From a virus, in the IMG/VR virus record IMGVR_UViG_3300017963_000025, positions 1 through 64,000 of that record: a stretch of 64,000 nucleotides of DNA. One strand, written 5' to 3'. Positions 2,069 through 63,496 of the stretch are shown in pieces. Position 1 is the stretch's first letter; the number at the start of each line of letters is the position of its first letter. The position numbers and the translations under genes are program-made. The notes below the pieces were generated by a model. The model was given only the letters and a program-made list of their open reading frames with translations, was not told the DNA's origin and searched no databases.

Positions 2069-2086
2069 TCCGCAAACGTTTGCGGA
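2069..2086. repeat. Dispersed 18-bp palindrome, copy 1
   Basis: Exact TCCGCAAACGTTTGCGGA directly after TAA and 2 nt upstream of a TTGACA. Confidence 0.97.
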
Positions 2087-2088
2087 CA

Positions 2089-2117
2089 TTGACACTTGCA
2101 CAATACGGTGTTATCCT
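2089..2117 (+). promoter_or_regulatory. Sigma70-type promoter
   Basis: TTGACA-17 nt-TATCCT with extended TG. Confidence 0.55.
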
Positions 2118-2158
2118 ATCCCCCGTTGGTTAGTCATTTCTTACACGGGGGATTTTTT

Positions 2159-2896
2159 ATGGAAGACACGGAAAAACGAAAACGGATAATCAAAGTCATG
2201 CTGAACACCACCCCGAAAAATTGGAAAACCACATTTGAAAATTTGGAGTGTTTGGATTGGGCAATCGGTATGGGTGTAATCACTGACAAGGGACGGATTA
2301 CCAAGGAGGGAAAGGCGATGCTGGCGGGTGCGAAACAGAGGGCAGACGAACTGTTACGGGGTGTCCTATTAAATGAGCGGTATGTCAAAGACGCACCTCC
2401 GAACAAATGGTATTATGGCGGTTTTACCACAAAAGGCGGAAAAACCGTAAATTGGGTACAATCCGGGGGACTGCTTCTGTTGAAGGACAAAAAAGAAATT
2501 CGGGACCGATTCAGAACGGACAATCTTCGGTTTTTGAAAGCAAAAGAACAGGATATCACCGACAAGCTAAACCGGTATTTAGCCGGGGAATGGCACCGGA
2601 CCACCCCGTTTGTTTGGCAAACGCATTTCCTAAATGAGATTAGTCTGATTTGGATGAAGAGAAACGTGCTTGTATCACCGGATGAGCAAAACGAAACCGA
2701 ACCGGATATTAATCTTATTCCGATTCAATCCGCTTACTACGACACCGTTGTCCGTATGGGTGCCGCCCATTTTGAAACACGGGATAAAAAAGAGGGAGAG
2801 AACATGCGGCTTGTTCGGGCATCAGGCAACGGGGTGTTTGCCATTATTGCCGAATACAGTATTGCCGGTCTTCCGATGCCAACAACGGGGGTGTAA
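2159..2896 (+). CDS. Hypothetical protein
   Basis: 245-aa ORF coupled to the polymerase gene. Confidence 0.6.
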   Translation: MEDTEKRKRIIKVMLNTTPKNWKTTFENLECLDWAIGMGVITDKGRITKEGKAMLAGAKQRADELLRGVLLNERYVKDAPPNKWYYGGFTTKGGKTVNWVQSGGLLLLKDKKEIRDRFRTDNLRFLKAKEQDITDKLNRYLAGEWHRTTPFVWQTHFLNEISLIWMKRNVLVSPDEQNETEPDINLIPIQSAYYDTVVRMGAAHFETRDKKEGENMRLVRASGNGVFAIIAEYSIAGLPMPTTGV

Positions 2897-2899
2897 TCA

Positions 2900-5500: not shown

Positions 5501-5513
5501 TAGGAGCATACCA

Positions 5514-7283
5514 ATGGACGAAAACACAAAACGCCGCGAGGAAAAAACCAAACGACGGGCACTTACGAAAGCCCTGGTAAAGCAAACACAGAAAGAAATT
5601 TCGGCATACCGGGAAAAAAGAGACGCGGTACTCTCCCAACAGATAGAAGCCGAAGCCCCCGAATTTCCCATGGAACGAGTGGGAAACAATATTTTCCTGA
5701 CACCTCCCTATGATCCCCATGAACTTTACGCATGGGCGATACGCTGTGACATTGTGAAGGCGTGTACGGATGCCATGGTCCAAAATGTGGACGGGTTCGG
5801 ATACAAACTGGTGTATCTTGGGGACGACACCACTGTGGATGAGGATGACCCAGAAAAAGAACGTATCAAAAATATTCTGGACCAAGCGAACGAATACCAA
5901 TCATTCACGACCATCCGCAAACGTTTGCGGACGGACTTGGAGGTAATCGGATACGGCGGGATTGAGGTGGTGCGTTACACCGGGGGAGAAATTTTTCTGT
6001 ATCCGATCAAAGCTGTCAATCTGAGAATGACCCAAAAACTCGCCCCTGAAATCCCGGTAAAAATCAATATTAAGCGGGATGGAAAAATTGTAACACTGAC
6101 TGTGAACCGAAAATTCCGGAAATTCGCCCAGGTACGAAGTGATGGTAAAATACGGTATTTCAAAGAATTTGGTGATCCCCGATACCTGAATAAAACCACC
6201 GGGGAATATTTTGACACACCCATCGCACCGGAACAAAATTCCACGGAAATCTGGTTCTTTCGGCATGACTTCGGGGTCAGTGCTTACGGATGCCCACCAT
6301 GGGTCGCCGCAATACTGGATGTCATGGGTCGGTACAAGTCCAAATATATCAACATGGACCTGATGGATTCACAGGGTATCCCCCCGATGCTGATCACCGT
6401 TTCAAACGGGTCACTGACAGACGAGTCCTATGAGGAATTGCAAATCATCCTAGACGCGTTTCGGGGCTATCAGAATTTCAATCGGATTGCCTGTCTCGAA
6501 TCCGAATTTGCGGATACCAGCATTGACGGCACCTCCGGCAGTGGCAATGCAAAAATCGAATTAAAGAACATGGTGGCCTTTCGACAATCCGATCTGATGT
6601 TCAAGGGCTACCTGAAACAAACCGGGGAGGATATTCGCCACACCCGCCGCATCCCCGATCTTTATCTCGGAATATCAGAATCATATACACATGCCACTTC
6701 GAAAGCTGCCCAAGCGGTGGCCGAAGAGCAGGTGTTCATCCCGGAACGTAAAGAATTTGACGAACGGTTCCATTTGGAATTCACCATACCGGAGTTGAAT
6801 GTGCGAAATTGGAAAATGGTGTCAAAAGGCCCGCAGATTGTCGGTGCCTCCCAGATCACCCAGGGGGTAAACGCGTTCAAAGACGCGCTGACTGTAAACT
6901 CTGCCATTGATTTGGCCAACACCGCATTCGGCACTGAAATGAGCCATTTCAGAGAGGAGTGGGCAAAATACCCCATTTCCCTCGTGATGGAATGGATCAA
7001 GCTCGGCAAGATCGATATGCACAGTAAGGTGGATCAAAGTATCACGGATACGATACCGGATAACACGGAACCTCCCCCGGACATGCCGGAGGATTTGCCG
7101 GACAATCAGCAAGAATTATTGAAAGCACTATATAATATTCGGTGCCGGATGGATGATATCTTTAAAAACGATGGCGAAAATTACGCGGCGGAAGAAATGC
7201 TCCCCGACATAATCAAAAATGCCATGCGGTTTATGGCCGACGTGGGAGAGGAGTTGGCATCCTATGACTCGACCGATATTTAA
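5514..7283 (+). CDS. Portal protein, PBSX family
   Basis: LTPPYDP, NVDGFG, DLEVIG..IEVVR, YFKEFGDPR, YGCPPW motifs; TAGGAG RBS before ATG 5514. Confidence 0.88.
   Translation: MDENTKRREEKTKRRALTKALVKQTQKEISAYREKRDAVLSQQIEAEAPEFPMERVGNNIFLTPPYDPHELYAWAIRCDIVKACTDAMVQNVDGFGYKLVYLGDDTTVDEDDPEKERIKNILDQANEYQSFTTIRKRLRTDLEVIGYGGIEVVRYTGGEIFLYPIKAVNLRMTQKLAPEIPVKINIKRDGKIVTLTVNRKFRKFAQVRSDGKIRYFKEFGDPRYLNKTTGEYFDTPIAPEQNSTEIWFFRHDFGVSAYGCPPWVAAILDVMGRYKSKYINMDLMDSQGIPPMLITVSNGSLTDESYEELQIILDAFRGYQNFNRIACLESEFADTSIDGTSGSGNAKIELKNMVAFRQSDLMFKGYLKQTGEDIRHTRRIPDLYLGISESYTHATSKAAQAVAEEQVFIPERKEFDERFHLEFTIPELNVRNWKMVSKGPQIVGASQITQGVNAFKDALTVNSAIDLANTAFGTEMSHFREEWAKYPISLVMEWIKLGKIDMHSKVDQSITDTIPDNTEPPPDMPEDLPDNQQELLKALYNIRCRMDDIFKNDGENYAAEEMLPDIIKNAMRFMADVGEELASYDSTDI
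5914..5931. repeat. 18-bp palindrome, copy 2 (inside portal, IRKRLRT)
   Basis: Exact match. Confidence 0.97.
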
Positions 7284-8155: not shown

Positions 8156-8173
8156 TCCGCAAACGTTTGCGGA
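8156..8173. repeat. 18-bp palindrome, copy 3
   Basis: Exact match, 1 nt after TAA. Confidence 0.97.
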
Positions 8174-11322: not shown

Positions 11323-11690
11323 TGGAGGGACCAAAAATAACGTATAAATGCAAAGTGTGTGGAGAAAAATTGACCGATTTCGAACAATTGCGGAAGCACT
11401 GTCCCCAAGATGAGCGGTTTGAAGATTGGATCAAACCGTTTGAACTTTGTCATTATACTGACGGTTTGTTTTGCAAAGAATGCCGTCAGAAAATAATTGA
11501 CAAACGTATCGCCGAGTTTGACGGGGACACGAAATACACAGATGAAATGATTTGCCCGCATTGCGGCTATGAATACTCGGACAGTTGGGAATTGCAAAGC
11601 GAATCCGACGAAATAATATGTGACGATTGCGGAAACGAATTTAGATATGAAAGAATCGTAACAGCGGAGTATATAACGAGTAAAATCTGA
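11322..11690 (+). CDS. Zinc-finger protein carrying a 23-aa segment identical to the SSB protein
   Basis: Four CxxC pairs; 11373-11441 matches 17977-18045. Confidence 0.65.
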   Translation: MEGPKITYKCKVCGEKLTDFEQLRKHCPQDERFEDWIKPFELCHYTDGLFCKECRQKIIDKRIAEFDGDTKYTDEMICPHCGYEYSDSWELQSESDEIICDDCGNEFRYERIVTAEYITSKI

Positions 11691-12274: not shown

Positions 12275-12292
12275 TCCGCAAACGTTTGCGGA
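12275..12292. repeat. 18-bp palindrome, copy 4 (extends to 24 bp, 12272-12295)
   Basis: Exact match directly after TAA. Confidence 0.97.
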
Positions 12293-16143: not shown

Positions 16144-17119
16144 ATTTCTGAACGCATTGGGCGCGGACATGACGCGGATGCGTATTCGGGGGGACTGGAT
16201 GAACGTGCGGTGTCCGTTGGCACATATTACCCACACCAACGGGGATGCGCATCCGAGTTGCGGAATTCTGATATCCGATGACGGACCGGCAATATACCAT
16301 TGTTTCGGGTGTTCCGGGGGCAAACCGGAGTCGTTGTCGTGGATGGTCCACACGATGTGGGTTGCCACGGGACGATACCCGACAGATGCGGCAAAGATAC
16401 TGGCCAGTGAAAATTTTGTATCAGAGAGTGACGCTCCGGTATTTGATTGGGACATCCGCAAACGTTTGCGGATGACACCCCTGGATGCCGACGTGTTGAA
16501 GCAATATCCGCCATTGTCCGACAGCGTATCGTGCCTGACCGCCATGGTGGTCCGGAACTGGCTTACGGAATGCAGGGGGTTGGCTCCAAGCATAATTGAC
16601 ACGCACGGGTTGCGGTATTCCCCAGAGAATTGTACCGTGGTGTTTCCGCTGACAGATCATGCCGGGAACATTTTTGTGTTGCAAGAGCGGATGATTGGTA
16701 CGAAAAAAATGTGGACCGTAAATGAAAACACGTCCGGTGTGCATGTTGACTACCCCACAATTCGCCATGCGGGGTGTTGGATGAATCTTAAAAACGCGGA
16801 TTGGGGTCGCCCCGTGATGCTGGTGGAAAGCGGATTTGACGCGGGCCGGATTGCGTCTCTCGGGTTTGACAATGTGATTGCGTCCGGGGGTACGGGTGTT
16901 ACTCCCGCGCAAATCGGGGCGTTGGCCGGTCACACGTATATTTTGGGATATGACAATGATCGGGCAGGTCAACAGGCAATGGCAAGAATTGCCCGTATGT
17001 TGGGGAATCATACGGTGTATGTGGCGGATTGGGGCGTGGTGGGGGTTAAGGACGGTGGTGATTTGGTTAATGCGGAACAATTAAAAAAAGTTTTGACGAA
17101 TACACGCCGCATGACTTGA
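16121..17119 (+). CDS. DNA primase (zinc-binding domain plus TOPRIM)
   Basis: CPL..H...HPS, CFGC; VESGFDA, YDNDRAG, KDGGD. Confidence 0.85.
   Translation: MKKETILRFLNALGADMTRMRIRGDWMNVRCPLAHITHTNGDAHPSCGILISDDGPAIYHCFGCSGGKPESLSWMVHTMWVATGRYPTDAAKILASENFVSESDAPVFDWDIRKRLRMTPLDADVLKQYPPLSDSVSCLTAMVVRNWLTECRGLAPSIIDTHGLRYSPENCTVVFPLTDHAGNIFVLQERMIGTKKMWTVNENTSGVHVDYPTIRHAGCWMNLKNADWGRPVMLVESGFDAGRIASLGFDNVIASGGTGVTPAQIGALAGHTYILGYDNDRAGQQAMARIARMLGNHTVYVADWGVVGVKDGGDLVNAEQLKKVLTNTRRMT
16455..16472. repeat. 18-bp palindrome, copy 5 (inside primase)
   Basis: Exact match; extends to 22 bp. Confidence 0.97.
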
Positions 17120-18297: not shown

Positions 18298-19679
18298 TGA
18301 AATTCAGCGAGGCCACAGTCAGTACCCATGTGTTCGTTCCGAAGCATGAGGTAGATCCGGATTTGTTGGATGATTACGTCATCGAATCCGCATTTGAGGA
18401 TAATCGGCACGTAATCCGGACCTATGCGGAAACCGGTCGGCATATCGGATTCCCACGGAATTGTTTGCCACCGGGTTTTCGGGCAGAAAAGGTCTATGAC
18501 TTGCGTGTCACCGGCCCGAAAACCTACGGCACATTCACTTCCGAACTAAGACCGGACCAGTCCGACATTGTAAGGCGCACATTGGCAATATTACGCACCG
18601 AGGGCGGTGTGGTGATTCATGCTGATCCTGCTTACGGAAAAACCGTGTGTATTTTGAATATTCTGACCGAATTAAAGCGGCGGGCCATAGTTTTGGTACA
18701 CAAGAGGGATTTGGTATGGCAATGGGTGGAAAGAATCATACAACACACCACCATACCCCGGTCCCAGGTTGCGGTTGCGATGGACGGTGAAGTTGGTGCG
18801 TTGGACGGAAAAAATATTCTTGTCGGGTTGGTACATACTATCGGAAAAAATTGTTGGGGAGAGACACTTACGCACTGGCCGGGGGTGGTGGTGTTCGACG
18901 AAGTTCATAGCAGTGTGCCTCCGCAAACGTTTGCGGACGTGGCGGCAATGTTTCCAGCCAAATACCGAATCGGGGCTACTGCCACTCCACGGAGACAAGA
19001 CCGGATGCACCGGGTGTTTGAGCACCATATTGCAAGTTCGCGTCATCATGTCCGGGCGGTGGCTCCAACCCAAAACAAATCCGTGATCGTAATACATCGC
19101 TATTATGACCGTCATAAAATGCCGATTGAAGCGAAAAGCGTTCATGCAATTCGCGCACAGCTTTTTTATATCTTGATGAGTGACCCCGTGCGGAACCAAC
19201 TGATTGTCAACTATGTGTCATCGTTTGTGTCCGGGGGTCGCCGGGTGATTGTCGTATCAGATCGCATCTATCATTTGGCGGTGTTGGCGGCGATGACCCG
19301 GAAGAAACATCCGGACAAACAAGTCGGATTTTATACGAATCAGGTTGCGGTGCTGGACGAATACTGGACAGAGATTCGACGTACCACAAACACCAAAGCC
19401 GATCTTGATCTTACGGCCAAATATGCGGATGTGATATTCGCCACTTACAAAATGTTGGGGGAGGGGACCGATTTGGAAAATGTATCCGGAATGATTTATG
19501 CGATGCCCCGGACGGAGGTGGAGCAGTCCAAGGGTCGTATCGAGGGGCCGCGATCCGGCGGAAAAAAGCCCGTGGTAGTGGATATTTGGGACATGGTGTA
19601 CCCAACGGCCACGGGTTATGCAAAAAAGCGGATGTCGCATTATCAGTCGGTGGGTGCGTCCGTACATTACAGGGGGTAG
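18297..19679 (+). CDS. Superfamily 2 DEAD/H helicase
   Basis: AYGKT, DEVH, TATP, EGTD, QSKGRI. Confidence 0.9.
   Translation: MKFSEATVSTHVFVPKHEVDPDLLDDYVIESAFEDNRHVIRTYAETGRHIGFPRNCLPPGFRAEKVYDLRVTGPKTYGTFTSELRPDQSDIVRRTLAILRTEGGVVIHADPAYGKTVCILNILTELKRRAIVLVHKRDLVWQWVERIIQHTTIPRSQVAVAMDGEVGALDGKNILVGLVHTIGKNCWGETLTHWPGVVVFDEVHSSVPPQTFADVAAMFPAKYRIGATATPRRQDRMHRVFEHHIASSRHHVRAVAPTQNKSVIVIHRYYDRHKMPIEAKSVHAIRAQLFYILMSDPVRNQLIVNYVSSFVSGGRRVIVVSDRIYHLAVLAAMTRKKHPDKQVGFYTNQVAVLDEYWTEIRRTTNTKADLDLTAKYADVIFATYKMLGEGTDLENVSGMIYAMPRTEVEQSKGRIEGPRSGGKKPVVVDIWDMVYPTATGYAKKRMSHYQSVGASVHYRG
18920..18937. repeat. 18-bp palindrome, copy 6 (inside helicase, just after DEVH)
   Basis: Exact match. Confidence 0.97.
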
Positions 19680-19681: not shown

Positions 19682-20125
19682 ATGGCATCGTCATCGGACT
19701 ATCAAAAAGAATATTACCGGAGAAACCGGGAAGAAATTTTAAAGCAGAGAAAGAAACGATACCAGGAGGATAAGGATTATCGGGAGGGGTTGAAGACAAA
19801 GGCATTACAGAAGCACCATGCCAACAAACCCCCGAAAAAAAACAGGCTGGTGGTGAATGCGGATGGGAAAACTTTTTACACCACCGGTTACTTGTCAAAG
19901 ATGACCGGAATTAATATGATGACGATTCATTATTACATCCGGCACGGGATTATCCCGAACGCAAAAATTGTCCGTTGCGGATGGAAAATTTACACTGAGG
20001 AACAGATCGAAATTATCCGAGACGCGTTTGCGCCGTATGGCACCAAACGGAAGTCCGGTGAGGATTTGGAGCAAATCAAATTGAAAATACAAAAAGGATT
20101 CAACGCATGCCAAAAAAGAAAATAA
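19682..20125 (+). CDS. MerR-type HTH DNA-binding protein
   Basis: YTTGYLSKMTGI...TIHYY...GIIP......GWKIYTEEQI. Confidence 0.7.
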   Translation: MASSSDYQKEYYRRNREEILKQRKKRYQEDKDYREGLKTKALQKHHANKPPKKNRLVVNADGKTFYTTGYLSKMTGINMMTIHYYIRHGIIPNAKIVRCGWKIYTEEQIEIIRDAFAPYGTKRKSGEDLEQIKLKIQKGFNACQKRK

Positions 20126-21734: not shown

Positions 21735-22204
21735 GATTATTTTGCAAAGAATGCGGGGGCGTGTTATACGGCTATCCACGACATTTTCATAAGGGCATGG
21801 ATACTCTGTGCTCCCTCCGGTGTATGTGGAAGTGGGGGAAAACAAAACGAGTGGTGCCGGATATTCGTGTGCATCATTCCCAGGAATTTGCCGAATTCCG
21901 TAGCCGATTTGAGATTATGTTTGCGGAATGGCTGACCGTCAACGGATTCCCTGTGATTTACGAACAGTATTTATTCAGGCTTGGGGATCACGGATCATAT
22001 ACCCCGGATTTTTTTATCCCGGACGCGGGATTTGTGGAAGTCAAAGGCGTGTGGCATCCTGGGCAGCGTAAGAAAATGGACCGATTTATGGCGGAATATC
22101 CGGAAATTCCCATTGTATTGTTGCCGTGGCCGGTGAACATCCAACTATGTCCGCAAACGTTTGCGGACGACGGAGACGTGTCCGATGTACGCAGAATTTT
22201 ATGA
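21731..22204 (+). CDS. PD-(D/E)xK endonuclease (T7 endonuclease I-like)
   Basis: FRSRFE, YE, YTPDF, VEVKG. Confidence 0.75.
   Translation: MRLFCKECGGVLYGYPRHFHKGMDTLCSLRCMWKWGKTKRVVPDIRVHHSQEFAEFRSRFEIMFAEWLTVNGFPVIYEQYLFRLGDHGSYTPDFFIPDAGFVEVKGVWHPGQRKKMDRFMAEYPEIPIVLLPWPVNIQLCPQTFADDGDVSDVRRIL
22150..22167. repeat. 18-bp palindrome, copy 7
   Basis: Exact match in the 3' end of the endonuclease gene. Confidence 0.97.
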
Positions 22205-23639: not shown

Positions 23640-23657
23640 TCCGCAAACGTTTTCGGA
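23640..23657. repeat. 18-bp palindrome, copy 8 (1 mismatch)
   Basis: TCCGCAAACGTTTTCGGA after TGA, 7 nt upstream of a TTGACA. Confidence 0.9.
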
Positions 23658-23664
23658 TTTTCCA

Positions 23665-23693: not shown

Positions 23694-23736
23694 AACAAAT
23701 GTTTTTTTTCAATAATATATTTACGGGGGAATGGGA

Positions 23737-25368
23737 ATGAACCAAGTATCATTGGCACAATATTTGGCTGCGGGATATTCCGGTATTCATCTGAGAACGG
23801 ATGATATTCATGAAGCACGGTGCTTCATCATCAATTCGCTAAAATCGGTCGAACTGGCCGAAGGTGACCGAAAGGTCACAATGCTGGACCGAATGACGAT
23901 TTATGAGTGGGAACCCCGTTTTGGGGGTGGAAGACTTGCCGAAATACCAAATGATTATGCAGACGGGGTGTATGACGATGATGAATGGGAATCCGAGTCC
24001 AAAACAATTGACGATATGTTTATCGCTATGGAAGAGAAGGACCATGCCCTGTGTATCGTTAGGAATTCACGATCCTATTTGGAGGAAAGTCCGACCAATA
24101 CCGCAACCAATGCTACGACTATTGCGGCGGCAACGGACGCACTGATTATGGCCAAAGATCGGGGGAGCGCGTTTGTATTTCTGGGCAGCATATTCAAACC
24201 AGCCCAAGAGATAGATTACCTGATTACCGTGGTGGATTCGCCCTACCCCACCCGTCGTGATATCCGAGACAAAGCGCGGGCCATGGCGGAAAGCGCGGAA
24301 ATTGTCCCTGACAAAAGAGACAAACAGTACGCGACTTTTGAACGTAGCATTGCCGATGCCGCTATTGCCGGTTCCGGTATGAGTCACATGGCGGTTGAAA
24401 ACGCACTGTCATTGTCCATTGCATTGACGGGGGCATTTGATCATCGTATCATCATGAACGAAAAATCCGCCGAAATCCGGAAATCCGACGTATTAGAATA
24501 TTTTCCGGTGGATGAGGGATTGAAATATGTTGGTGGGATGGATTTGTTGAAAATGTATCTTTCGAAACGAAAAAACGCATTGGGAGAGGATGCGGAAAAA
24601 TTCGGTATCCTTCCCCCGAAAGGCATTTTGTTGGCGGGTATTCCCGGCACCGGAAAAAGTTTGGTGGCGAAGGCCGTATCATGTGAGTTTGGATGGCCAT
24701 GCCTTCGGTTGGATATGGGGAAAGTGTTCCGGTCCTATGTCGGGCAATCCGAAGCGGCTATCCGAAATGCGCTACAAGTGGCAGAGGCGGTGTCTCCGTG
24801 TGTGTTGTTTATTGACGAAATTGAGAAATCCGTTGCCGGGGCCGGATCGGATACGGATTCCGGTACGAGTTCACGGGTGGTTTCCACGTTGCTCACATGG
24901 AGACAGGAAACCACGAAACCCGTTTTTCTGGCGTGTACGGCAAACAAGGTGAGCGCAATCCCCCCGGAATTGATGCGGCATGGCAGGTTGGATGCTGTGT
25001 TTTTCACAGACACGCCAAACTATGCGGAGCGAGCGGAGATATTCAGAATTCATTTGGAAAAAAAACGGCGCGACCCTGACATGTTCGACATTGCGGAATT
25101 GGCGGAACAATCGGCAGAGTTTATCGGGTCGGAGATTGAGCAATGCATTATGGATGCGTTATATTCGGCGTTCGACCAGAAAACCGAAATAACCACGGAC
25201 CATATTCTCCGGGAAATCCTACAGACCAAACCCCTGTCTGTCAGGAATGCAGAGGAAGTCCGGTACATTCGGGAGTGGGGTATGTCGCGTGCAAGGCCCG
25301 TGAGTTCGAAATATGACGGGGATAGATCAAGGAAAAAGGGGCGTGTGCTCCGAACAATAAAAAATTAA
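23737..25368 (+). CDS. AAA+ ATPase, Ycf46-like
   Basis: VGGMDLLK, PKGILL.GIPGTGKSL.AKA, FIDEIEK, TAN....PPEL.R.GRLD, PLS. Confidence 0.9.
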   Translation: MNQVSLAQYLAAGYSGIHLRTDDIHEARCFIINSLKSVELAEGDRKVTMLDRMTIYEWEPRFGGGRLAEIPNDYADGVYDDDEWESESKTIDDMFIAMEEKDHALCIVRNSRSYLEESPTNTATNATTIAAATDALIMAKDRGSAFVFLGSIFKPAQEIDYLITVVDSPYPTRRDIRDKARAMAESAEIVPDKRDKQYATFERSIADAAIAGSGMSHMAVENALSLSIALTGAFDHRIIMNEKSAEIRKSDVLEYFPVDEGLKYVGGMDLLKMYLSKRKNALGEDAEKFGILPPKGILLAGIPGTGKSLVAKAVSCEFGWPCLRLDMGKVFRSYVGQSEAAIRNALQVAEAVSPCVLFIDEIEKSVAGAGSDTDSGTSSRVVSTLLTWRQETTKPVFLACTANKVSAIPPELMRHGRLDAVFFTDTPNYAERAEIFRIHLEKKRRDPDMFDIAELAEQSAEFIGSEIEQCIMDALYSAFDQKTEITTDHILREILQTKPLSVRNAEEVRYIREWGMSRARPVSSKYDGDRSRKKGRVLRTIKN

Positions 25369-26352: not shown

Positions 26353-27267
26353 ATGGATACGATTCCGTTTGAAAAAATGCCTGTTTGGTTGGTGAGGAAT
26401 GGTGTCCGCACCGGATTAAGATATGCAATTCGTCAATCGGATTGGACCTTGGCGCGGACCTGCCTCGAAAAAATATTGCCAGATGATGGTATGTCATGGC
26501 TACAATGGAATATTCCCATTGCCATTGCCCATGATGCTTGTCATCTCATTCCGTTGATTGCCAAAGTTGATCATGCGGACGCAGATACATTTAGAAAATT
26601 GGTGGCAACGATTACGTTGTCCCCAAAAAATCAGGATGCCTATTCCCTGTCCGTGAGCAGCCCGTTTGAAGAACAGATGCCAATTGAAACTGAGCAAACC
26701 CTGTATTGGATTAGCCGGGGCTATTTTGTACATGAAAGATTGCGAGAGTGGGCAGTTGGGAAAGGGTGTGCCGAGGATGTTCTTGACCCGATCAATCGTC
26801 GTGTGGCTATGGGCGGACGCGCTGAGGACACCAAGACGTTTGTGGCGTGTCATGTGATTCTGGCAAACCGGGAGGTTGAGTCTCCCCGACTTGGTAAACC
26901 AGTGGTTTACCAATTATCTGATGAGTTGCCCTTGGTTTGTTTTGGCCCTGAAGGTCAGGTCGGCCGAGATATTGAGCGTCGGTTCGAGAAAACGTGTCTG
27001 TATAAATACGATATGGATATGATTCATATAATTCGGCTATGGCGTGAATTCATGTATGAGAGGGTACCATTAACGAAACTGCATCCGGATAGCCGCTACT
27101 ATAGGAAACGGCTTGAAACGAACACAATATATCAGGATTATTCGGCCCATGATATGTGGGCGTTATGGAAAAAATCATTAAAACATGATATAACAGAGTG
27201 TATTCGATATGTAATTGAAGAGGAGATAAGACAATGGAATTTGTCGGTCCCGTCGCAAAGGCCCTAA
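26353..27267 (+). CDS. Hypothetical protein
   Basis: 304-aa coupled ORF. Confidence 0.6.
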   Translation: MDTIPFEKMPVWLVRNGVRTGLRYAIRQSDWTLARTCLEKILPDDGMSWLQWNIPIAIAHDACHLIPLIAKVDHADADTFRKLVATITLSPKNQDAYSLSVSSPFEEQMPIETEQTLYWISRGYFVHERLREWAVGKGCAEDVLDPINRRVAMGGRAEDTKTFVACHVILANREVESPRLGKPVVYQLSDELPLVCFGPEGQVGRDIERRFEKTCLYKYDMDMIHIIRLWREFMYERVPLTKLHPDSRYYRKRLETNTIYQDYSAHDMWALWKKSLKHDITECIRYVIEEEIRQWNLSVPSQRP

Positions 27268-28178
27268 AGAAGGACAACGGAAAAGTGTTCCCCGGTATTC
27301 GGTGGGAACACCAGGAGCAAGTCAAATTGCCAATCCGGTTGCTATACTATAATGGTTGGAACCCAAATGAAATGACTGAAAGCGAGTTTAACGCGCTATC
27401 CGGAAACGTGGACGAAGTGGCTATGCTTGACCCCGTGTTGGTCGTGCCGTGGACTACTACCGAACAACAGGTAGAAATCGAGGATCGTCTTTATACAGCG
27501 GATCATGGGCAGGTGGTGACAGACTGTGGAGAGGTGGTGTTCCGTGTCGTGGACGGGGAACACCGAACCGAACAGCAACGGATTGCGGATGCGGAGTATA
27601 TTCCCTGTATCATCGGACATCCGGAACGGTTGGACGAATTCATGCAGAAAAAACAGACCATGCGTATGAACATGATCCGGGGAAAACTGAACCGGAAAAA
27701 GTTCAATGCCCTGGTTGAGGATTTCATAAACAACTACGGGACGGACATGGATGCGTTGCCGGATGAACTTGGGTTTTCGGATTCAAAGGAATTCTATCGC
27801 ATGATTGACGTGGCGCGGGAATCCCTGCCGGAAGACCTTCAGAAAGAATTTGACCGGGTGAAGGACGGTATCACAAACATTGATGATCTGGGTGCGGTGA
27901 TCAATCGGTTGTTTTCCGAGTTTGGTGACACCGTACCTGCGAACTATATGATTTTGGATTTCGGAGGCAAGGACCATATCTGGGTCAAAATATCAGTGGG
28001 GAAGTTTGACACCATGCGCCGGGTGGCGGATGACATTCGAAAGCACGGGCATACGTTTGATTCCATGATCTGTCATATTTTGGAACATCTGAATATCGAA
28101 AAATATGTCGAGCGTTATGGGGGTCAGTTGGAATTGATCGAATCACATCCGCAAACGTTTGCGGACGAGGAGGATTGA
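27234..28178 (+). CDS. ParB/Srx N-terminal domain protein
   Basis: WNPNEM....F.AL...V.....LDPVLV, VVDGEHR, IPCII, MN.IRG. Confidence 0.8.
   Translation: MEFVGPVAKALKKDNGKVFPGIRWEHQEQVKLPIRLLYYNGWNPNEMTESEFNALSGNVDEVAMLDPVLVVPWTTTEQQVEIEDRLYTADHGQVVTDCGEVVFRVVDGEHRTEQQRIADAEYIPCIIGHPERLDEFMQKKQTMRMNMIRGKLNRKKFNALVEDFINNYGTDMDALPDELGFSDSKEFYRMIDVARESLPEDLQKEFDRVKDGITNIDDLGAVINRLFSEFGDTVPANYMILDFGGKDHIWVKISVGKFDTMRRVADDIRKHGHTFDSMICHILEHLNIEKYVERYGGQLELIESHPQTFADEED
28148..28165. repeat. 18-bp palindrome, copy 9 (3' end of ParB-like gene)
   Basis: Exact match. Confidence 0.97.
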
Positions 28179-32510: not shown

Positions 32511-32528
32511 TCCGCAAACGTTTGCGGA
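32511..32528. repeat. 18-bp palindrome, copy 10
   Basis: Exact match, 3 nt after TAA. Confidence 0.97.
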
Positions 32529-34070: not shown

Positions 34071-34072
34071 CC

Positions 34073-40314: not shown

Positions 40315-40669
40315 ACGACTGCTCCACACATCGACGGTACAGGATGCAAAAAATAATGCTTCGGGAAGTCATGCGAATCCGAAACACACCGGTTTTCTAA
40401 ATCCCGACTGGGTGGAATGGTTCATGGGATGGCCGGTGGGATGGTCCGATGTCAGAACGCTGAATAAACTTGTGTGGCTCCCGATAAACATGTGGCCTAA
40501 TATTAAGCCAATCACGTACAAAAAAGAAAACAGAAGAAATCGCGTCAAAGCTATCGGTGACGGGCAGGTTCCGCAGGCGGCGATTCTGGCATGGAATATC
40601 TTGTCTGGTCCGCAAACGTTTGCGGACTTAATCCAGTGTTTTACCCCCGGTTTGACCGGGGGTAAGTAA
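39815..40669 (+). CDS. C5 cytosine methyltransferase second chain (TRD plus motifs IX-X) in an overlapping frame; start uncertain
   Basis: DSPARTS, WGMM..G, LPTP, LNPDWVEWFMGWP.GW, RVKAIGDGQVPQ. Confidence 0.75.
   Translation: MSKTTTIGSELSGKGLLTVSCQRHRSSVISKHSLVKGTPQAIREWLISLAADSPARTSPLPEKAKVLPVKNHLSGLQWPMPYASFDPDTYSLKTAQCSLLADSSTSLVRFSKWGMMRRGVLYPLPTLARGISGKESGFLLPTPTVNGNYNRKGASKHSGDGLATAIKRLLHTSTVQDAKNNASGSHANPKHTGFLNPDWVEWFMGWPVGWSDVRTLNKLVWLPINMWPNIKPITYKKENRRNRVKAIGDGQVPQAAILAWNILSGPQTFADLIQCFTPGLTGGK
40609..40626. repeat. 18-bp palindrome, copy 11
   Basis: Exact match. Confidence 0.97.
40641..40665. terminator. Hairpin between convergent transcription units
   Basis: TTACCCCCGG-TTTGA-CCGGGGGTAA. 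Confidence 0.65.
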
Positions 40670-42333: not shown

Positions 42334-42351
42334 TCCGCAAACGTTTGCGGA
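42334..42351. repeat. 18-bp palindrome, copy 12
   Basis: Exact match in the non-coding region. Confidence 0.97.
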
Positions 42352-44772: not shown

Positions 44773-44790
44773 TCCGCAAACGTTTGCGGA
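44773..44790. repeat. 18-bp palindrome, copy 13
   Basis: Exact match, intergenic. Confidence 0.97.
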
Positions 44791-45374: not shown

Positions 45375-45392
45375 TCCGCAAACGTTTGCGGG
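45375..45392. repeat. Palindrome, copy 14 (16-bp core perfect, last base G)
   Basis: TCCGCAAACGTTTGCGGG. Confidence 0.93.
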
Positions 45393-46197: not shown

Positions 46198-46245
46198 TAT
46201 ATAATAATTCCTTTTAAGGCAATTGTCAAGTATTATTTTTCATAT
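46198..46245 (-). promoter_or_regulatory. Repeated strong early promoter (leftward half of a divergent pair)
   Basis: TTGACA 46224-46229 on minus, same 17-nt spacer, TATTAT. Confidence 0.85.
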
Positions 46246-46279: not shown

Positions 46280-46375
46280 GTGTACATCCGTGTAAAAAAA
46301 ATAAAAATATGAAAAATAATACTTGACAATTGCCTTAAAAGGAATTATTATATATTCCAGACAGCGAGAGAAACC
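46280..46375 (+). promoter_or_regulatory. Repeated strong early promoter (rightward)
   Basis: TTGACA 46323-46328, TATTAT 46346-46351, UP element. Confidence 0.88.
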
Positions 46376-48098: not shown

Positions 48099-48376
48099 AT
48101 AACGGCAAGACCGGGGAAATTTAAAACCAAACTCGGACGAACCCAAACTGTTCACGCAAAACAGTCCCCGGTCGAACCGTGATGTCAAAAACGTATTTGT
48201 CACACGGTGAGGAGAAAAGAATGGTCGAAAACTTTTTGCTTGTCACACGAAAAGCGGATATTACATTCCTTACCATATTTTCACCATGTATTCGGATTTT
48301 TCATGTCCCCCCTACCAAACGGGGACTAAAATTATATGATATTTTGAATCGATTTTTCCTGTTGGGAGATAGCGCT

Positions 48377-50057: not shown

Positions 50058-50131
50058 AAAAAATATGAAAAATAATGCTTGACAATTGCCTTAAAAGGAA
50101 TTATTATATATTTCAGACAGCGAGAGAAACC
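50058..50131 (+). promoter_or_regulatory. Repeated strong early promoter
   Basis: TTGACA 50079-50084, TATTAT 50102-50107, same leader CAGACAGCGAGAGAAACC. Confidence 0.88.
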
Positions 50132-50149: not shown

Positions 50150-50167
50150 TCCGCAAACGTTTGCGGA
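50150..50167. repeat. 18-bp palindrome, copy 15 (5' leader, just before the RBS)
   Basis: Exact match; extends to 22 bp. Confidence 0.97.
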
Positions 50168-51770: not shown

Positions 51771-51788
51771 TCCGCAAACGTTTGCGGA
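51771..51788. repeat. 18-bp palindrome, copy 16
   Basis: Exact match; shares the TAACCG flank with copy 10. Confidence 0.97.
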
Positions 51789-55107: not shown

Positions 55108-55125
55108 TCCGCAACCGTTTGCGGA
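55108..55125. repeat. 18-bp palindrome, copy 17 (1 mismatch)
   Basis: TCCGCAACCGTTTGCGGA. Confidence 0.9.
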
Positions 55126-56373: not shown

Positions 56374-56416
56374 GGTCGAACGATACTTGACAATTGCCCT
56401 ATAGGGTGTTAGTATA

Positions 56417-56986: not shown

Positions 56987-57176
56987 AAAAGCCGGAAGCA
57001 ACCGTCCAACAGACCAGATGGAGGACCGCATCAGGGAACTGTATGCGATCAAAGCGGAACGCGGGCATTTGACAAAATCGGAACAAGCTGAATTCGACAC
57101 ATTGGAAACCGCATGGTTTAACAAAAACCAAGAAAAACTACGGTCTATGGCCGAACGTCCGTGCTACAAAATAAAC

Positions 57177-57205
57177 TTGACAAATTCCGAATAAGGTGTT
57201 ATTCT
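57177..57205 (+). promoter_or_regulatory. Sigma70-type promoter
   Basis: TTGACA-17 nt-TATTCT with TG extension. Confidence 0.6.
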
Positions 57206-57245
57206 ATATTTTGATAAAATATAATTGAAGGAGGAATAACACCGC

Positions 57246-58852: not shown

Positions 58853-58870
58853 ACCGCAAACGTTTGCGGA
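58853..58870. repeat. Palindrome, copy 18 (16-bp core perfect, first base A)
   Basis: ACCGCAAACGTTTGCGGA. Confidence 0.93.
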
Positions 58871-59970: not shown

Positions 59971-60515
59971 CGGATATTACTGCGTTACGGGTTACGGTGG
60001 TAGTATAAAAGGGGCCGGTGGGAAAAGAGTTAAAAATCCGGCCACCGGCCTATACCGAATATATTGGAAAATATCTGATAGTGGCGGCGGGTTCCTTTAT
60101 TGAAAATCATAATGTGTGTCATGGAGGAGAAATGATACGAGTATTCCCAAAGCGAACGAAGAAACGATGCTGTACGGAATGCAGTCTTCGAAACTTGGAG
60201 GGTGTGTGTGAGGAATGCGGAGGGGAACCATGTCAGAATTGCATCTATTGTAGGAGCGTTAGGAATCAGACGCGGGATGACATGAAAAGACGAGACAGTA
60301 TAAAGAAATGGACAAAAAAGGAATAACATGTCAAAGGTAATCTGGCTGAGAGGTGCGGACACCAAGAAACACGCATTTGTTGACAAATACGCGACCAGTG
60401 CTTTGTGTGGCAAACAACGGGAGGCAAAAAACTGGATCATTTTAAGGCATCGCACGAAGAAATGCCCGCGCTGCATGAAAATTATGAAAGACTATGACAA
60501 CTGCGGAGGAACCGA

Positions 60516-61673: not shown

Positions 61674-61714
61674 AAAACCGTGCATTTGTGCCTGTCACAT
61701 TGCACGGTTTTTTT
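61674..61714 (+). terminator. Rho-independent terminator
   Basis: AAAACCGTGCA...TGCACGGTTTT plus T tract. Confidence 0.7.
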
Positions 61715-61916
61715 ATTTACATATTTGAAATTCGTATAATTCTCACACAATGTGATAGCACATATCCCCCCAATTTTCCCCCAAATTTATTTAATTTGTC
61801 TAACACTCCGTATTTCCTATAAAATTCTATCACCTTCCGTCGCTCAGTTTGAAATGAGTTGACAAAGTATTGTATATGTCAATTGATACTATTGATATTT
61901 TCGATACGAGTCGGAG

Positions 61917-62498
61917 GTGGACGTGATTAAAAATTACCGATTGAAATCCGAAGAAAAACGGTTGGTCGTTTCCGAGGTGTATGTTCCCGGCGATGTGGAT
62001 TTGCAGGGGGATATGATGAGCGTTGAACAAGTGGAAAAAATGGCCTTCGAATTTATGAAAAACCAGCGCACCGGCAATGTGGACGTGAATCATGACTTCA
62101 CCCCATCCGGTGCGTTTGTTGTTGAATCATGGATTGCCCGCCCCAACGATCCGGACGGGTTCAGGGAAGGGGCATGGGCCGTAACAATCCATATTCCGGA
62201 TGACACCCTGTGGGCCAAGGTAAAATCCGGCGACCTGAATGCCCTTTCCATGGCTGGTAAGACCAAAACCGAATCCGGAAAACAGGTGGTGTCCCTCATT
62301 ACCGGGCTGGACGGATTTACCGAAAAATCCGCCTGTCCGGGGTTACCAGAACATCGGCATCCGGTCAGTGTGGCATGGAAGGACGGCGAAATCGGTGGAA
62401 AAACCGAAATCGCGTTTGATCACGACCACGACATCATTTCACTATCCGCCACCGGGGAAACACTCGGACATGCCCACCGGTTGGTGGTGGAGGATTAG
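61917..62498 (+). CDS. XkdF-like prohead serine protease
   Basis: V..EVYVP...D.QGD, A.EFM, DVNHD, VVESWIA, GAW, W.KVKSG.L.A.S. Confidence 0.85.
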   Translation: MDVIKNYRLKSEEKRLVVSEVYVPGDVDLQGDMMSVEQVEKMAFEFMKNQRTGNVDVNHDFTPSGAFVVESWIARPNDPDGFREGAWAVTIHIPDDTLWAKVKSGDLNALSMAGKTKTESGKQVVSLITGLDGFTEKSACPGLPEHRHPVSVAWKDGEIGGKTEIAFDHDHDIISLSATGETLGHAHRLVVED

Positions 62499-62500
62499 CC

Positions 62501-63478
62501 ATGCCAGTCAGAGCGTCCAAAATACAAAAAGAGGAAGATGTGACTATGTTGGCAGACATGGACGTGCGATACATTTCTTTGGTGCCGCACGGTGCGAACG
62601 GTCGCAGTTTCCGCGTTGTCAAAAAATACGAAAAGGAGTCATTGACTATGAAATCAATTCACCGAATTATTTCTCATGGGAAAACACCCTATGCGGATAT
62701 TGTTAAAAACAATCCGTGGCTGCAATCCCTTGGGGGGGATGTCGTAAAAACGGATAATGGGTGGTACGTCGAGCATTTGCCACAAGACCAGTTTGCGGAA
62801 AAATCCTGGCAGATTCAAAAAATCACGGAGGATGTGTTTATCCTGTCCGGTGAACTCACCACGGACAGGGCGGATGCAGTGATCCCGCCGGACACTACGA
62901 AATCCATTGGCGTGGCCGCCATGGATGCCCAGGTAAAAACAGGGGAGACGAAAAAAAGCGAACTCACCAGACCGTTCGGGGAGATGGTCGGAACGGAAAC
63001 TGACGCGTTGCTCGGCGTGGTATTTGGCGCACTGAAGCAAACGGCGGGGAACGGGAAAAGCCGAAAGAAAACCGTGCTGAACGCGATTGATGCCTATCGG
63101 GAATTCATGGATTCCGGATTGGACATGATCGGTGCGGAGGCATTGGAATTGTCCTACCCGGCCACACCGGCCCCGGAAGACACTTCGGATGTTGTGCAAA
63201 CGGAATTTGTTGAAATCACCAACCCCACGGATGACGTGGTGAAGCTGGTGGAAACCCTGAAAGGCGCGGGGGTATTCCCCAAACTACCGGAAGAAAATCC
63301 GGAGGTGGCCGAACTGAAAACCACGATTGCCGAACTGACGGAAAGGGTGAAAAATTTGTCTGGGCAACCCACTGCGATATCGGCATCTGTCGAGGATGAC
63401 GATGTAACAGCAGGCACGTCCGCAACCACAACCGAACCGGACCCGGATGAAAAACTTTTCAGTGGGGTACTGGTTTAA
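62501..63478 (+). CDS. Head maturation/scaffold protein
   Basis: L.D.DV..ISLV..GAN...F..VK, acidic coiled-coil tail; directly upstream of the capsid gene. Confidence 0.6.
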   Translation: MPVRASKIQKEEDVTMLADMDVRYISLVPHGANGRSFRVVKKYEKESLTMKSIHRIISHGKTPYADIVKNNPWLQSLGGDVVKTDNGWYVEHLPQDQFAEKSWQIQKITEDVFILSGELTTDRADAVIPPDTTKSIGVAAMDAQVKTGETKKSELTRPFGEMVGTETDALLGVVFGALKQTAGNGKSRKKTVLNAIDAYREFMDSGLDMIGAEALELSYPATPAPEDTSDVVQTEFVEITNPTDDVVKLVETLKGAGVFPKLPEENPEVAELKTTIAELTERVKNLSGQPTAISASVEDDDVTAGTSATTTEPDPDEKLFSGVLV

Positions 63479-63496
63479 TCCGCAAACGTTTGCGGA
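63479..63496. repeat. 18-bp palindrome, copy 19
   Basis: Exact match directly after TAA, upstream of the capsid RBS. Confidence 0.97.

Follow-up and report, generated by a model that had tools for sequence, protein, structure and literature searches.

What does an 18-bp palindrome do when a phage carries it, nearly unchanged, every few kilobases along its chromosome? The DNA that raises this question belongs to an 85-kb marine phage whose record spans 85,381 bp, including a terminal repeat of 123 bp; the window analyzed here is the initial 64 kb (64,000 nt) of that record. The palindrome, TCCGCAAACGTTTGCGGA, occurred 19 times in the 64,000-nt window (15 perfect copies and 4 with a single mismatch) and 22 times on the circular 85,258-bp genome, where 18 of the 22 were perfect over all 18 bp. 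Copies beyond the window lie at 66638, 74403, and 80234, and there were none with two or three mismatches anywhere in the genome. An earlier note on this DNA had given the 19 positions and the 18 gaps between them, computed by hand, and all of these proved exact. The arms of the palindrome in this phage read CGCA...TGCG, extended to 18 bp. Its copies in the window are placed as follows.

Site 1, 2069..2086: perfect; starts right where the stop codon of the preceding gene ends; a promoter-like element (TTGACA-17-TATCCT) starts 2 bp downstream, ahead of a winged-helix gene
Site 2, 5914..5931: perfect; within the portal gene, encoding I-RKRLR-T in the conserved IRKxxR block
Site 3, 8156..8173: perfect; intergenic, 1 nt past a stop codon and 13 nt ahead of the next start
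Site 4, 12275..12292: perfect; immediately past a stop codon, followed by an inverted repeat with a 17-bp stem and TTGACA
Site 5, 16455..16472: perfect; within the primase (Toprim) gene, encoding RKRLR
Site 6, 18920..18937: perfect; within the SF2 helicase gene shortly past the DEVH motif, encoding PQTFAD
Site 7, 22150..22167: perfect; 3' end of an endonuclease I-like gene, next start 17 nt on
Site 8, 23640..23657: one mismatch; intergenic, ahead of a conserved early-type promoter of the AAA ATPase operon, whose -35 lies 7 bp downstream
Site 9, 28148..28165: perfect; final codons of a ParB-like gene (PQTFAD), next start 15 nt on
Site 10, 32511..32528: perfect; intergenic, 3 nt past a stop codon
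Site 11, 40609..40626: perfect; 3' part of a called 225-aa ORF, followed by a terminator-like hairpin
Site 12, 42334..42351: perfect; region of divergent transcription
Site 13, 44773..44790: perfect; among minus-strand genes, with a T run after it
Site 14, 45375..45392: one mismatch; 602 bp from site 13, the only short gap
Site 15, 50150..50167: perfect; about 40 nt downstream of a conserved promoter (50075-50108), start codon 17 nt on
Site 16, 51771..51788: perfect; intergenic, 3 nt past a stop codon
Site 17, 55108..55125: one mismatch; intergenic, promoter-like TTGACG 26 nt downstream
Site 18, 58853..58870: one mismatch; intergenic
Site 19, 63479..63496: perfect; immediately past a stop codon, major capsid gene 33 nt on

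Genome-wide, 13 of the 22 sites were intergenic, most of them located past a stop codon and ahead of the ribosome-binding site that comes next (P=1e-8). Six lay within well-supported genes, where the reading frames keep conserved protein sequence, as in the IRKxxR block of the portal. Because 22 copies were observed against a chance expectation of 0.07, and because the intragenic copies keep conserved protein sequence, the 18-bp site is real and strongly constrained. The 5.5-kb tape measure gene of this phage carried no site.

The earlier note had described the spacing as more even than random, with a mean of about 3.4 kb and a CV of about 0.5, and our calculations agree: the 18 gaps in the window averaged 3,412 bp with a CV of 0.49, and 19 uniform points gave a CV this low or lower with P ~1e-3 (9e-4). 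On the circular genome (22 gaps) the CV was 0.50, with P=5e-4 against uniform placement and, using gene-boundary nulls built on crude gene calls made in this analysis, P=4e-5 against random gene starts and P=8e-5 against a mixed null; none of 50,000 permutations was as even when sites were drawn from random intergenic gaps of at least 18 bp. Permutation of the full genome, which the note had proposed with a null restricted to gene boundaries, thus rules out chance, a gene-boundary artefact, and operon structure as the source of the evenness, and the regularity persisted both over the remaining genome and across the phage family. Since neighboring sites were separated by anywhere from 1 to 28 genes, the spacing is even in base pairs and uneven in gene count.

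What found no support here was the proposal of a maintained maximum distance of 4.5-5 kb. Only one gap exceeds 4.8 kb in the window, as the note had observed, but the remainder of the genome adds gaps of 7,765, 5,831, and 7,093 bp, such that 4 of the 22 gaps measure 5.8-8.1 kb. The gap distribution was gamma-like, with a shape of 3-7, and once the deficit of short gaps was modelled the largest gap was unremarkable (P=0.22 here, 0.04-0.37 in cultured relatives). The robust observation is that the evenness stems mainly from missing gaps below ~1-1.4 kb.

Is the array peculiar to this phage? An exact 18-mer scan of IMG/VR returned just two unrelated single-copy contigs, and the ~150 single-copy loci from metagenome and genome scans likewise led to no relatives. 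We defined a phage family through homologues of the portal, comprising siphoviruses of 80-110 kb; relatives reached via the major capsid protein (L011-L090) showed no repeated palindromes, leaving the portal as the informative marker. Most family members carried a 16-bp palindrome of their own, TGCA-N6-TGCA, invariant in any one genome and changing from one genome to the next, on a common scaffold of (T)TGCA-N6-TGCA(A). The 23 related IMG/VR loci with their own TGCA-N6-TGCA were evenly spaced (Fisher P 6e-20, or 5e-17 once 4 possibly redundant loci were dropped; pooled CV 0.44). Whole-genome CVs in cultured phages were 0.46 for DLP5 (31 sites), 0.37 for V-YDF132, 0.56 for SM1, 0.58 for L338C, and 0.48-0.50 for RcTiptonus, all five genomes being even at P<=8e-4; RcZahn had a looser array (CV 0.62) of 28 generic sites versus 1.3 expected. 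A palindrome 0.83-1.15 kb upstream of PolA, the position of site 1 here, was kept in 8 close relatives with other motifs.

In RcTiptonus, 27 of 52 sites fell within genes (the tape measure gene has 3 of them, terminase and PolA 2 each), and among relatives whose motifs have an asymmetric central 2 bp, both orientations were found; together these features indicate an orientation-independent function at the level of DNA. RcTiptonus and RcZahn infect a common Rhodobacter host strain with different motif centers. As the motif is constant within each genome, variable between genomes, and different between two phages of one host strain, its specificity is set by the phage. The intragenic sites of RcTiptonus and the family-wide evenness point to a DNA-level, phage-specified protein-binding array.

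Four genes of the window bear on which protein this might be.

2159..2896, plus strand: fast-evolving winged-helix-like protein with a weak PF24409 match; rival candidate binder
19682..20125, plus strand: MerR-type HTH protein of 147 aa, after the SF2 helicase gene (Pfam MerR_1 E=2e-6); rival candidate binder
23731..25368, plus strand: AAA+ ATPase of 545 aa, whose gene opens the operon closed by the ParB-like gene
27234..28178, plus strand: ParB-like protein of 314 aa, without a ParA partner, with an N-terminal ParB NTPase fold, a helical middle, and a C-terminal domain

We consider the ParB-like protein the leading candidate binder, one that would recognize the palindrome. Its gene is the last in the AAA ATPase operon, three small ORFs (1.1 kb) separate it from the large terminase gene downstream, and the AAA+ ATPase itself was conserved in 6 of 6 cultured relatives. 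Homologues of the protein carry PF02195; this phage's own copy fell below the Pfam threshold for ParB_N (E=0.49), and Pfam found no HTH in it. A family profile searched against the PDB retrieved the N-domains of ParB, Noc, and Spo0J at E=2e-14 to 1e-8, and the NTPase fold was recovered from structure as well (Foldseek E ~3e-7; VIA Z 11-12, rmsd 1.8-2.0 over 92-97 residues). The best structural matches of the AF2 model were KorB and Noc, with a VIA Z of 12.2 to KorB and 11.5 to ParB. Helices 135-229, modelled at pLDDT 50-85, form a putative DNA-binding region: they align with the DNA-binding domains of both KorB (Z 12.2 and rmsd 4.7 over 28-212 of the model) and Noc (Z 9.8 over 26-234). The ParB/Srx NTPase fold is able to bind CTP, ATP, or GTP (PMC12704722). 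The canonical CTP box II (GERRxR/GERRxRA) is not kept: this protein and its close homologues have DGEHR at that place, the distant homologues SGHHR. An N..RG resembling box III is conserved. Searches of the complete genome for ParA with PF01656 and PF13614 gave no match, while all control genomes matched.

The full-length ParB-like protein was present in this phage, DLP5, RcZahn, RcTiptonus, and V-YDF132, and together with an array in 6 large IMG/VR records. Another 11 uncultured loci that carry an array or copies of the motif also encode it (L318 being partial, with no motif found). SM1, L338C, and two complete IMG/VR genomes (G016 and G017) have arrays and encode only divergent ParB_N proteins, and the array-poor relatives G009 and G011 encode ParB_N proteins too. 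Presence or absence does not discriminate, since hardly any member of the family lacks a ParB_N protein altogether. The helix following a conserved MGF turn varied with motif class, a covariation that is weak and confounded by phylogeny. One phage ParB-like protein is known to hold another job, that of activating thymine dioxygenases (PMC13229309), which is a different system; a family search of this genome found no Tet_JBP gene.

Our preferred reading, held tentatively and at somewhat below even weight, is that the palindromes are dsDNA sites for a phage-encoded dimeric protein, likeliest the ParA-less ParB-like protein, and that the array is an organ of the whole family. The earlier note had suggested a spreading or looping protein, or else a ratchet in genome entry or packaging; a divergent ParB-like protein is indeed encoded at 27234-28178, making a protein that acts over kilobases a reasonable reading, though its binding to the palindrome, its spreading, and their purpose are what we infer. 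Sites would be placed in short intergenic gaps where possible and encoded in coding sequence where needed, at least ~1-1.4 kb apart and typically ~2-4 kb. The protein would load at each as a dimer or clamp and act over ~1 kb to either side by sliding or spreading. A second site inside a covered stretch would add nothing and be lost, while a long uncovered stretch would favor a new site; such loss and gain would produce gamma-like spacing and near-complete coverage of the chromosome. Candidate purposes of this coverage are global silencing, clearing polymerases off the DNA before packaging, compaction, and shielding from host nucleases. An upper gap limit, which a strict coverage model predicts, is only weakly supported.

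The closest precedent is the repeat of Cluster O mycobacteriophages such as Corndog, a 17-bp palindrome (7-3-7) present in 34-37 copies per ~70-kb genome and invariant within a genome; its authors suggested that a dimeric protein binds it and thought a part in transcription doubtful (PMC4351075). As in this family, copies are both intergenic and intragenic, the center shows no orientation bias, and the genomes encode ParB-like and AAA ATPase proteins (PMC4351075). The lineage and motif are unrelated, however, so that the likeness is one of analogy and not homology, and the Corndog array was not even in our analysis (CV 0.93, dense at the right end, with gaps up to 6.9 kb). No spacing analysis or family-wide motif turnover was reported for Cluster O (PMC4351075).

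Plasmid and bacterial systems offer a second comparison, and with it a precedent for numerous dispersed palindromes recognized by ParB relatives. The KorB-OB sites of plasmid RK2 and those of Noc, like the palindromes here, are many copies of a 13-16 bp palindrome scattered over a replicon, and in Bacillus subtilis the Noc sites are dispersed over the chromosome. KorB and Noc are ParB-fold proteins that load at their sites and slide over kilobases without dependence on ParA, and the phage protein is likened to them by fold. We know of no description of even spacing for OB or Noc sites. By sliding away from its sites, KorB acts over a distance (PMC11790492, PMC13768133) and brings about silencing there (PMC11790492). 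In the phage protein, by contrast, box II is non-canonical and no KorA-like partner was identified. The replicon also differs from RK2 and B. subtilis, being a lytic phage chromosome in at least some family members; the RcF phages are apparently virulent (PMC8601537). RcF members with the densest arrays showed no sign of lysogeny.

Other phages disperse sites as well. Cluster A stoperators and the C1 operators of phage P1 comprise tens of short sites, mostly in short intergenic gaps, through which one phage protein exerts genome-wide control; they are asymmetric, derive from temperate immunity systems, and, in the case of stoperators, are oriented with transcription. The present array is instead palindromic, orientation-free, often intragenic in relatives, and evenly spaced. 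The phage-plasmid N15 has four dispersed centromere sites, a ParB-type protein, and a ParA-type partner; it shares with this phage the pairing of a ParB-type protein and multiple palindromic sites spread over the genome of a phage, and differs in having four sites and a ParA-type partner as against 22 sites and no ParA. DLP5, a member of the present family, is an episomal prophage maintained as a phagemid (PMC5834331, PMC7326821).

Several alternatives would account for parts of these data. A non-spreading phage transcription factor, MerR-like or winged-helix, could use the sites as operators, acting as a genome-wide roadblock or repressor in the manner of stoperators or as an activator; in the roadblock version, one block per transcript stretch would suffice and give even spacing. 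Dyad symmetry suits a dimeric HTH protein, promoter-like elements adjoin four of the sites (2069, 23640, 45375, and 55108), and the stop-to-ribosome-binding-site placement of most of the 13 intergenic sites (P=1e-8) fits as well. The winged-helix gene closely follows site 1 with its promoter and precedes PolA, with positional orthologues in 7 close relatives (20-37% identity), each behind that phage's own palindrome; this arrangement of site and promoter, kept in 8 relatives, has the look of classic autoregulation. MerR-like proteins are found in this phage, V-YDF132, DLP5, SM1, and L338C. Most sites have no promoter close by, however, many sites of relatives lie deep within long genes, no member of the winged-helix family was detected in array-bearing distant relatives, and neither RcTiptonus nor RcZahn yielded a MerR-like protein. 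Single-sequence IMG/VR searches with either protein yielded essentially no relatives. Point binding alone also leaves spacing that is even in base pairs and uneven in gene count unexplained, and the Cluster O authors thought a transcriptional role unlikely for their repeat (PMC4351075). We judge transcription-factor operators unlikely, and consider it improbable that the palindromes act as ssDNA hairpins in replication or recombination, whether for lagging-strand priming, helicase loading, or entry of a junction-resolving enzyme. Spacing of 1.8-3.9 kb does fall within the size range of bacterial and phage Okazaki fragments, a palindrome functions on both strands, and the family conserves a large replication and recombination module (DnaB, primase, SSB, SF2 helicase, RecA, endonuclease I, a Cas4-like nuclease, and RuvC). 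Against this, the stem has just 7 bp and the loop 4 nt (-8.9 kcal/mol as RNA), the signals of known primases are 3 nt long, and structure alone requires neither a self-complementary loop nor TGCA arms throughout the family.

The same hairpin could act as RNA, as a processing, stabilizer, terminator, or translational-regulator site in polycistronic transcripts, and most sites are indeed transcribed between a stop codon and the next ribosome-binding site, with T runs after a few (44773 and 23640). This is very improbable, as the 4 variant copies disrupt pairing with no compensating change, the loop itself is palindromic, T runs are absent at most sites, about half of RcTiptonus sites are intragenic, and asymmetric centers occur in both orientations despite one-directional transcription. 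A selfish or enzymatic sequence, either a mobile element of palindromic form or a target that a phage enzyme nicks, cleaves, or modifies, as with T5-type nick motifs, has an equally slight probability: copies are near-identical within a genome, the phage encodes DNA methyltransferases and a Mom-like modifier, and nicks at motifs exist in other phages (PMC11780129), yet intragenic copies are part of conserved protein sequence and not insertions, sites lack flanking duplications or extra sequence, and known nick motifs are asymmetric and on one strand only, those of PMC11780129 being a different system. Least probable of all is binding by a host LacI/PurR-type regulator, for purine or sugar sensing or as a repressor sponge. 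The core GCAAACGTTTGC matches the PurR box of E. coli (string in PMC3159470), and the exact 18-mer occurs singly in ~150 unrelated bacterial or metagenome loci, often beside GCAAACG-like boxes, the contexts mostly resembling LacI operators or arising by coincidence of coding (PQTFAD in a conserved ORF). However, the phage lacks a LacI domain; AACGTT is one among 64 possible palindromic centers, and locus L282 has it with TTGCA arms; and relatives on many hosts keep the architecture with other centers, even two phages of one Rhodobacter strain differing. Searches of the phage's own genome also gave no match to Sigma70_r4, and none to T7-type RNA polymerase, for which the control likewise failed to match, so that this negative carries no information.

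Searches of the accessible literature on motif strings and on evenly spaced phage palindromes returned no description of such an array, nor was one mentioned in the genome papers of DLP5, SM1, V-YDF132, L338C, RcTiptonus, or RcZahn. The array of this phage, together with the versions in its relatives, points to an undescribed genome-wide protein-binding system, possibly of ParB-like loading sites. A broader proposition, which we regard as doubtful, is that one widespread family of tailed phages possesses a whole-chromosome ParB-type system in which evenly spaced, phage-specific palindromes load a ParA-less, ParB-like NTPase clamp that coats the chromosome in lytic growth, with site and protein specificity co-evolving; such coating might silence transcription, prepare for packaging, or hide the DNA from host defences. 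If the ParB-like reading is correct, this would be a natural case of a virus organizing its whole chromosome by a regular lattice of specific protein-binding sites, the spacing of that lattice (~1.8-3.9 kb, minimum ~1 kb) would be a genomic read-out of the action distance of the bound protein, and the known roles of ParA-less ParB-fold proteins, common in phages and mostly unexplained, would be widened. Motif turnover on the fixed TGCA-N6-TGCA scaffold provides a data set for the joint change in specificity of a protein and dozens of sites, and the presence of the array in six cultured, published phages (DLP5, SM1, V-YDF132, L338C, RcTiptonus, and RcZahn) makes it testable at the bench.

One Spirochaetota MAG held 21 copies nested in a 30-bp palindrome; with a GC content of 53-60% versus 47% for the phage, and no other link, we treated it as coincidence or a separate repeat family. 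A search of sequencing runs listed no RNA runs with phage sequence and DNA matches in two runs only, from sediment and seawater metagenomes.

The phage record, whose first 64 kb make up the window, runs to 85,381 bp and ends in a 123-bp terminal repeat, giving a circular length of 85,258 bp. The 18-bp perfect palindrome TCCGCAAACGTTTGCGGA occurs 19 times in the window, as 15 perfect copies and 4 with one mismatch, compared with 0.07 matches expected in shuffled sequence; no copies with two or three mismatches were found in the genome. Three more, at 66638, 74403 and 80234, bring the genome-wide count to 22. The gaps computed by hand in the earlier note, from the sequence alone, implied 19 palindrome positions, all of which proved exact.

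The claim that these gaps are more even than random held under permutation. The coefficient of variation (CV) is 0.49 in the window (P = 9e-4 against 19 uniform points) and 0.50 for the 22 circular gaps (P = 5e-4 against uniform placement), so that significance survives on the whole circle despite a sparser part beyond the window. Placement at gene or operon boundaries, which the note had raised as a competing null, was rejected as well: in null models resting on crude gene calls, 22 sites at random gene starts would be expected to show a CV of 1.05 (P = 4e-5 for the CV seen), a mixed null gave P = 8e-5, and sites put at random into intergenic gaps of 18 bp or longer reached the observed CV in 0 of 50,000 trials. 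Between 1 and 28 genes separate neighbouring palindromes. Together, these results show a regularity of distance in base pairs rather than of genes or operons. The largest gap (32.5-40.6 kb), described previously as fragment-rich, does contain two palindrome half-sites (TCCGCAAA and TCCGCAAACG) 18 bp apart at 33684-33711, which could be remnants of a decayed site.

Repeated palindromes were absent among relatives found through the capsid protein. A family of 80-110 kb phages emerges from portal homologues at 30-46% identity, and most of its loci carry their own multi-copy palindrome on a shared (T)TGCA-N6-TGCA(A) scaffold, for example TTGCAAACGTTTGCAA, TTGCAATCGATTGCAA, TTGCAACCGGTTGCAA, TTGCAGGTACCTGCAA, TTGCAGGAACCTGCAA and TTGAAATCGATTTCAA. 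Copies are near-identical inside one genome, and the centre, sometimes with the arms, varies between genomes. Across 23 uncultured portal-family loci with at least five sites each, gap CVs were mostly 0.14-0.55, where null means were 0.73-0.89; the pooled normalised CV was 0.44, and Fisher's combined P was 6e-20 (5e-17 without four possibly redundant loci). A site 0.83-1.15 kb upstream of PolA keeps its position in eight close relatives with different motifs, while other array positions turn over among close relatives, indicating that spacing is conserved as positions and sequences drift. Six cultured phages, scored over whole genomes, also bear the array.

Palindrome arrays in cultured relatives (phage; sites; gap CV)
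Stenotrophomonas phage DLP5; 31; 0.46
Vibrio phage V-YDF132; 33 (gaps 1,252-4,421 bp); 0.37
Pseudomonas phage SM1; 30; 0.56
Rhizobium phage L338C; 43; 0.58
Rhodobacter phage RcTiptonus; 42-52; 0.48-0.50
RcZahn; 28 looser TGCA-N6-TGCA sites (1.3 expected); 0.62

Even spacing is thus confirmed, and greatly strengthened by its replication in relatives. The palindromes go unmentioned in the genome papers of RcTiptonus and RcZahn (PMC8601537) and of DLP3 and DLP5 (PMC7326821, PMC5834331), and a string and keyword search of open-access papers and preprints returned no description of the array. Besides its palindromes, L338C (loci L353-L358) contains an asymmetric motif, ATCCTTTGTCAA, 22 times; this may be a phage-specific promoter or represent another class of site.

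A gamma model with shape 3.2-7.4 fits the gap distributions; an exponential model was rejected (summed delta-AIC about 120), and gamma outperformed a pure hard-core model by 30 AIC units. The robust feature is that gaps below about 1-1.4 kb are scarce. Given that minimum distance, the largest gap is weakly small in DLP5 and V-YDF132 (P = 0.04-0.05), with P = 0.22-0.37 in the other genomes, this phage included. A maintained maximum gap is at best a secondary effect, and the 4.5-5 kb cap proposed in the earlier note is unsupported. Outside the window the array is sparser (gaps of 3,159, 7,765, 5,831 and 7,093 bp), and the last three break a limit of about 4.8 kb.

The phage is a siphovirus with almost all genes on the plus strand, and sequencing runs containing its DNA came from only one sediment and one seawater metagenome. 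We identified genes for replication and recombination (PolA-UDG fusion, DnaB, primase, SF2 helicase, RecA, endonuclease I, PD-(D/E)XK nuclease, RuvC), for structure and packaging (portal, large terminase homologue, protease, major capsid protein, 1,850-aa tape measure protein), and for a MerR-type HTH protein, an AAA ATPase, a Mom-like protein and two methyltransferase-like proteins. Thirteen of the 22 sites are fully intergenic in a genome that is 9.5% non-coding (enrichment P = 1e-8), usually 0-3 nt past a stop codon and 13-33 nt ahead of the next start, and four abut sigma-70-like promoter elements. Six fall within well-supported genes (portal, primase, SF2 helicase, the 3' ends of the endonuclease I and ParB-like genes, and one further ORF), with intragenic sites translated as RKRLR or PQTFAD. 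The portal palindrome overlies a conserved IRKxxR block and is thus encoded in the protein sequence rather than inserted. RcTiptonus has 27 of its 52 sites inside genes, among them three in the tape measure gene and two each in terminase and PolA.

The perfect dyad, centre included, the indifference to orientation, the frequent intragenic placement, the phage-specific sequence and the presence in apparently virulent members such as the RcF phages (PMC8601537) together point to a dimeric protein, encoded by the phage, that recognises the palindromes as double-stranded DNA. Motifs with an asymmetric central 2 bp occur in both orientations despite one-way transcription. We set RNA hairpins aside: variant copies break the stem with no compensating change, the loop is a palindrome too, and relatives have many sites inside genes. 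Mobile elements and nick sites were likewise set aside, as insertion footprints are lacking and the motif is symmetric. Binding by a host LacI/PurR-type factor would suit the palindrome core, which is a PurR box, and the single-copy occurrence of the 18-mer at operator-like places in many bacteria; we set this reading aside, however, as a search found no LacI domain in the phage genome and related phages use other motif centres, even two on one host strain. Three phage genes encode candidate binders:

27234-28178, plus strand: ParB-like protein, 314 aa
19682-20125: MerR-type HTH protein
2159-2896: fast-evolving winged-helix-like protein

Following the suggestion of ParB in the earlier note, we tested the genome for this protein. 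Pfam ParB_N stayed sub-threshold, and the 27234-28178 product has a homologue in RcTiptonus, gp23, whose annotation is ParB-like nuclease domain protein; in both phages the gene lies 0.7-1.1 kb upstream of the terminase gene. Homologues of the product carry PF02195, a profile of its family hits structures of ParB, Noc and Spo0J (E = 2e-14), and an AF2 model (pLDDT 73) best matches ParB, KorB and Noc. Comparison through this model gave Z 12.2 over 154 residues for KorB, DNA-binding region included, and Z 11.5 with rmsd 1.8-2.0 for ParB N-domains. Box II of the family, DGEHR or SGHHR, departs from the canonical CTP motif, and ParA was not found in this genome. The helix that follows a conserved MGF turn differs between motif classes, an association confounded by phylogeny. 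Full-length proteins of this ParB subfamily are always accompanied by an array. On the other side, divergent ParB_N proteins are the only ones in four array-bearing genomes (SM1, L338C and two complete uncultured ones), and relatives poor in sites encode ParB_N proteins as well. The MerR-type gene, as a rival, keeps a syntenic position behind the SF2 helicase gene and is present in five of seven genomes. The winged-helix-like gene comes directly after the positionally conserved site and its promoter, yet its product is detectable in close relatives only. We infer both binder and purpose. The interpretation in the earlier note gains partial support: a ParB-like protein could plausibly act at a distance, but the 5-kb spacing limit lacks support. 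At 60106-60252, a weak ParB_N-like match (E = 0.015) is broken by an in-frame TGA; a second ParB-domain gene, either decayed or recoded, may lie here, and DLP3 and DLP5 encode two such proteins.

Genome-wide operator sets such as stoperators and the C1 operators of P1 are analogous to this array, but their sites are asymmetric. The closest parallel is a 17-bp palindrome in Cluster O mycobacteriophages, with 34-37 intergenic and intragenic copies of unknown function in a genome that also encodes a ParB-like protein and an AAA ATPase (PMC4351075); unlike this array, its spacing, measured here, is uneven (CV 0.93). KorB (PMC11790492) and Noc provide mechanistic models, each a ParB-fold clamp with many dispersed palindromes and kilobase-range action.

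The same 18-mer occurs elsewhere. A Spirochaetota MAG (G001; 4.2 Mb, GC 53-60%; loci L172, L180, L184, L197, L210, L212, L215, L225, L226, L230, L232, L233, L237, L241) has 21 copies, 14 of them exact, nested in a 30-bp perfect palindrome, GATAGG-18mer-CCTATC, in intergenic positions and sometimes with extra half-site repeats. They look like a REP-, MITE- or regulon-type repeat, and we found no link between them and the phage. In five unrelated Clostridia-type viral or genomic contigs (L005, L092, L117, L194, L239), the exact 18-mer forms part of a conserved ORF of 305-334 aa, which reads it as NPQTFADLG and adjoins a 500-620-aa ORF; this is a coding coincidence, not an array.

A second, unrelated repeat family is a conserved sigma-70-like promoter, CTTGACA-N17-TATTAT, in about 11 copies:

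23661-23694, 35224-35257, 38630-38666, 46319-46352, 50075-50108, 56383-56416, 57173-57206, plus strand: promoter copies
41909-41943, 42128-42162, 45228-45262, 46205-46239, minus strand: promoter copies

The spacer holds its own small palindrome (TTCCTTTTAAGGAA-like). Copies cluster at 41.9-57.2 kb in both orientations and are embedded in longer repeats, including 96-nt arms (41881-41976/46280-46375) that are 100% complementary; these are probably the early promoters, with spacers that contain an operator. At 42900-42959, in a low-GC, divergently transcribed region (40.7-46.1 kb), four to five tandem repeats of the 12-bp unit AAACATTTGTTG form an iteron-like array, possibly at an origin or a site of regulation. 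Two copies of a 71-nt stretch, at 11373-11443 and 17977-18047, are 92% identical and link a small ORF with the SSB-like gene, and other local duplications pair 34044-34118 with 34435-34509 and 33535-33583 with 34507-34555. The family A DNA polymerase at 2900-5500 has an N-terminal uracil-DNA-glycosylase-superfamily domain (residues 23-165), and the portal gene directly follows, an unusual order common to the closest relatives. A full-length Mom-family protein at 38831-39517 (Pfam E = 3e-46) suggests, from sequence, adenine hypermodification of the phage DNA; the genome also encodes an N6/N4 methyltransferase at 48221-49948.
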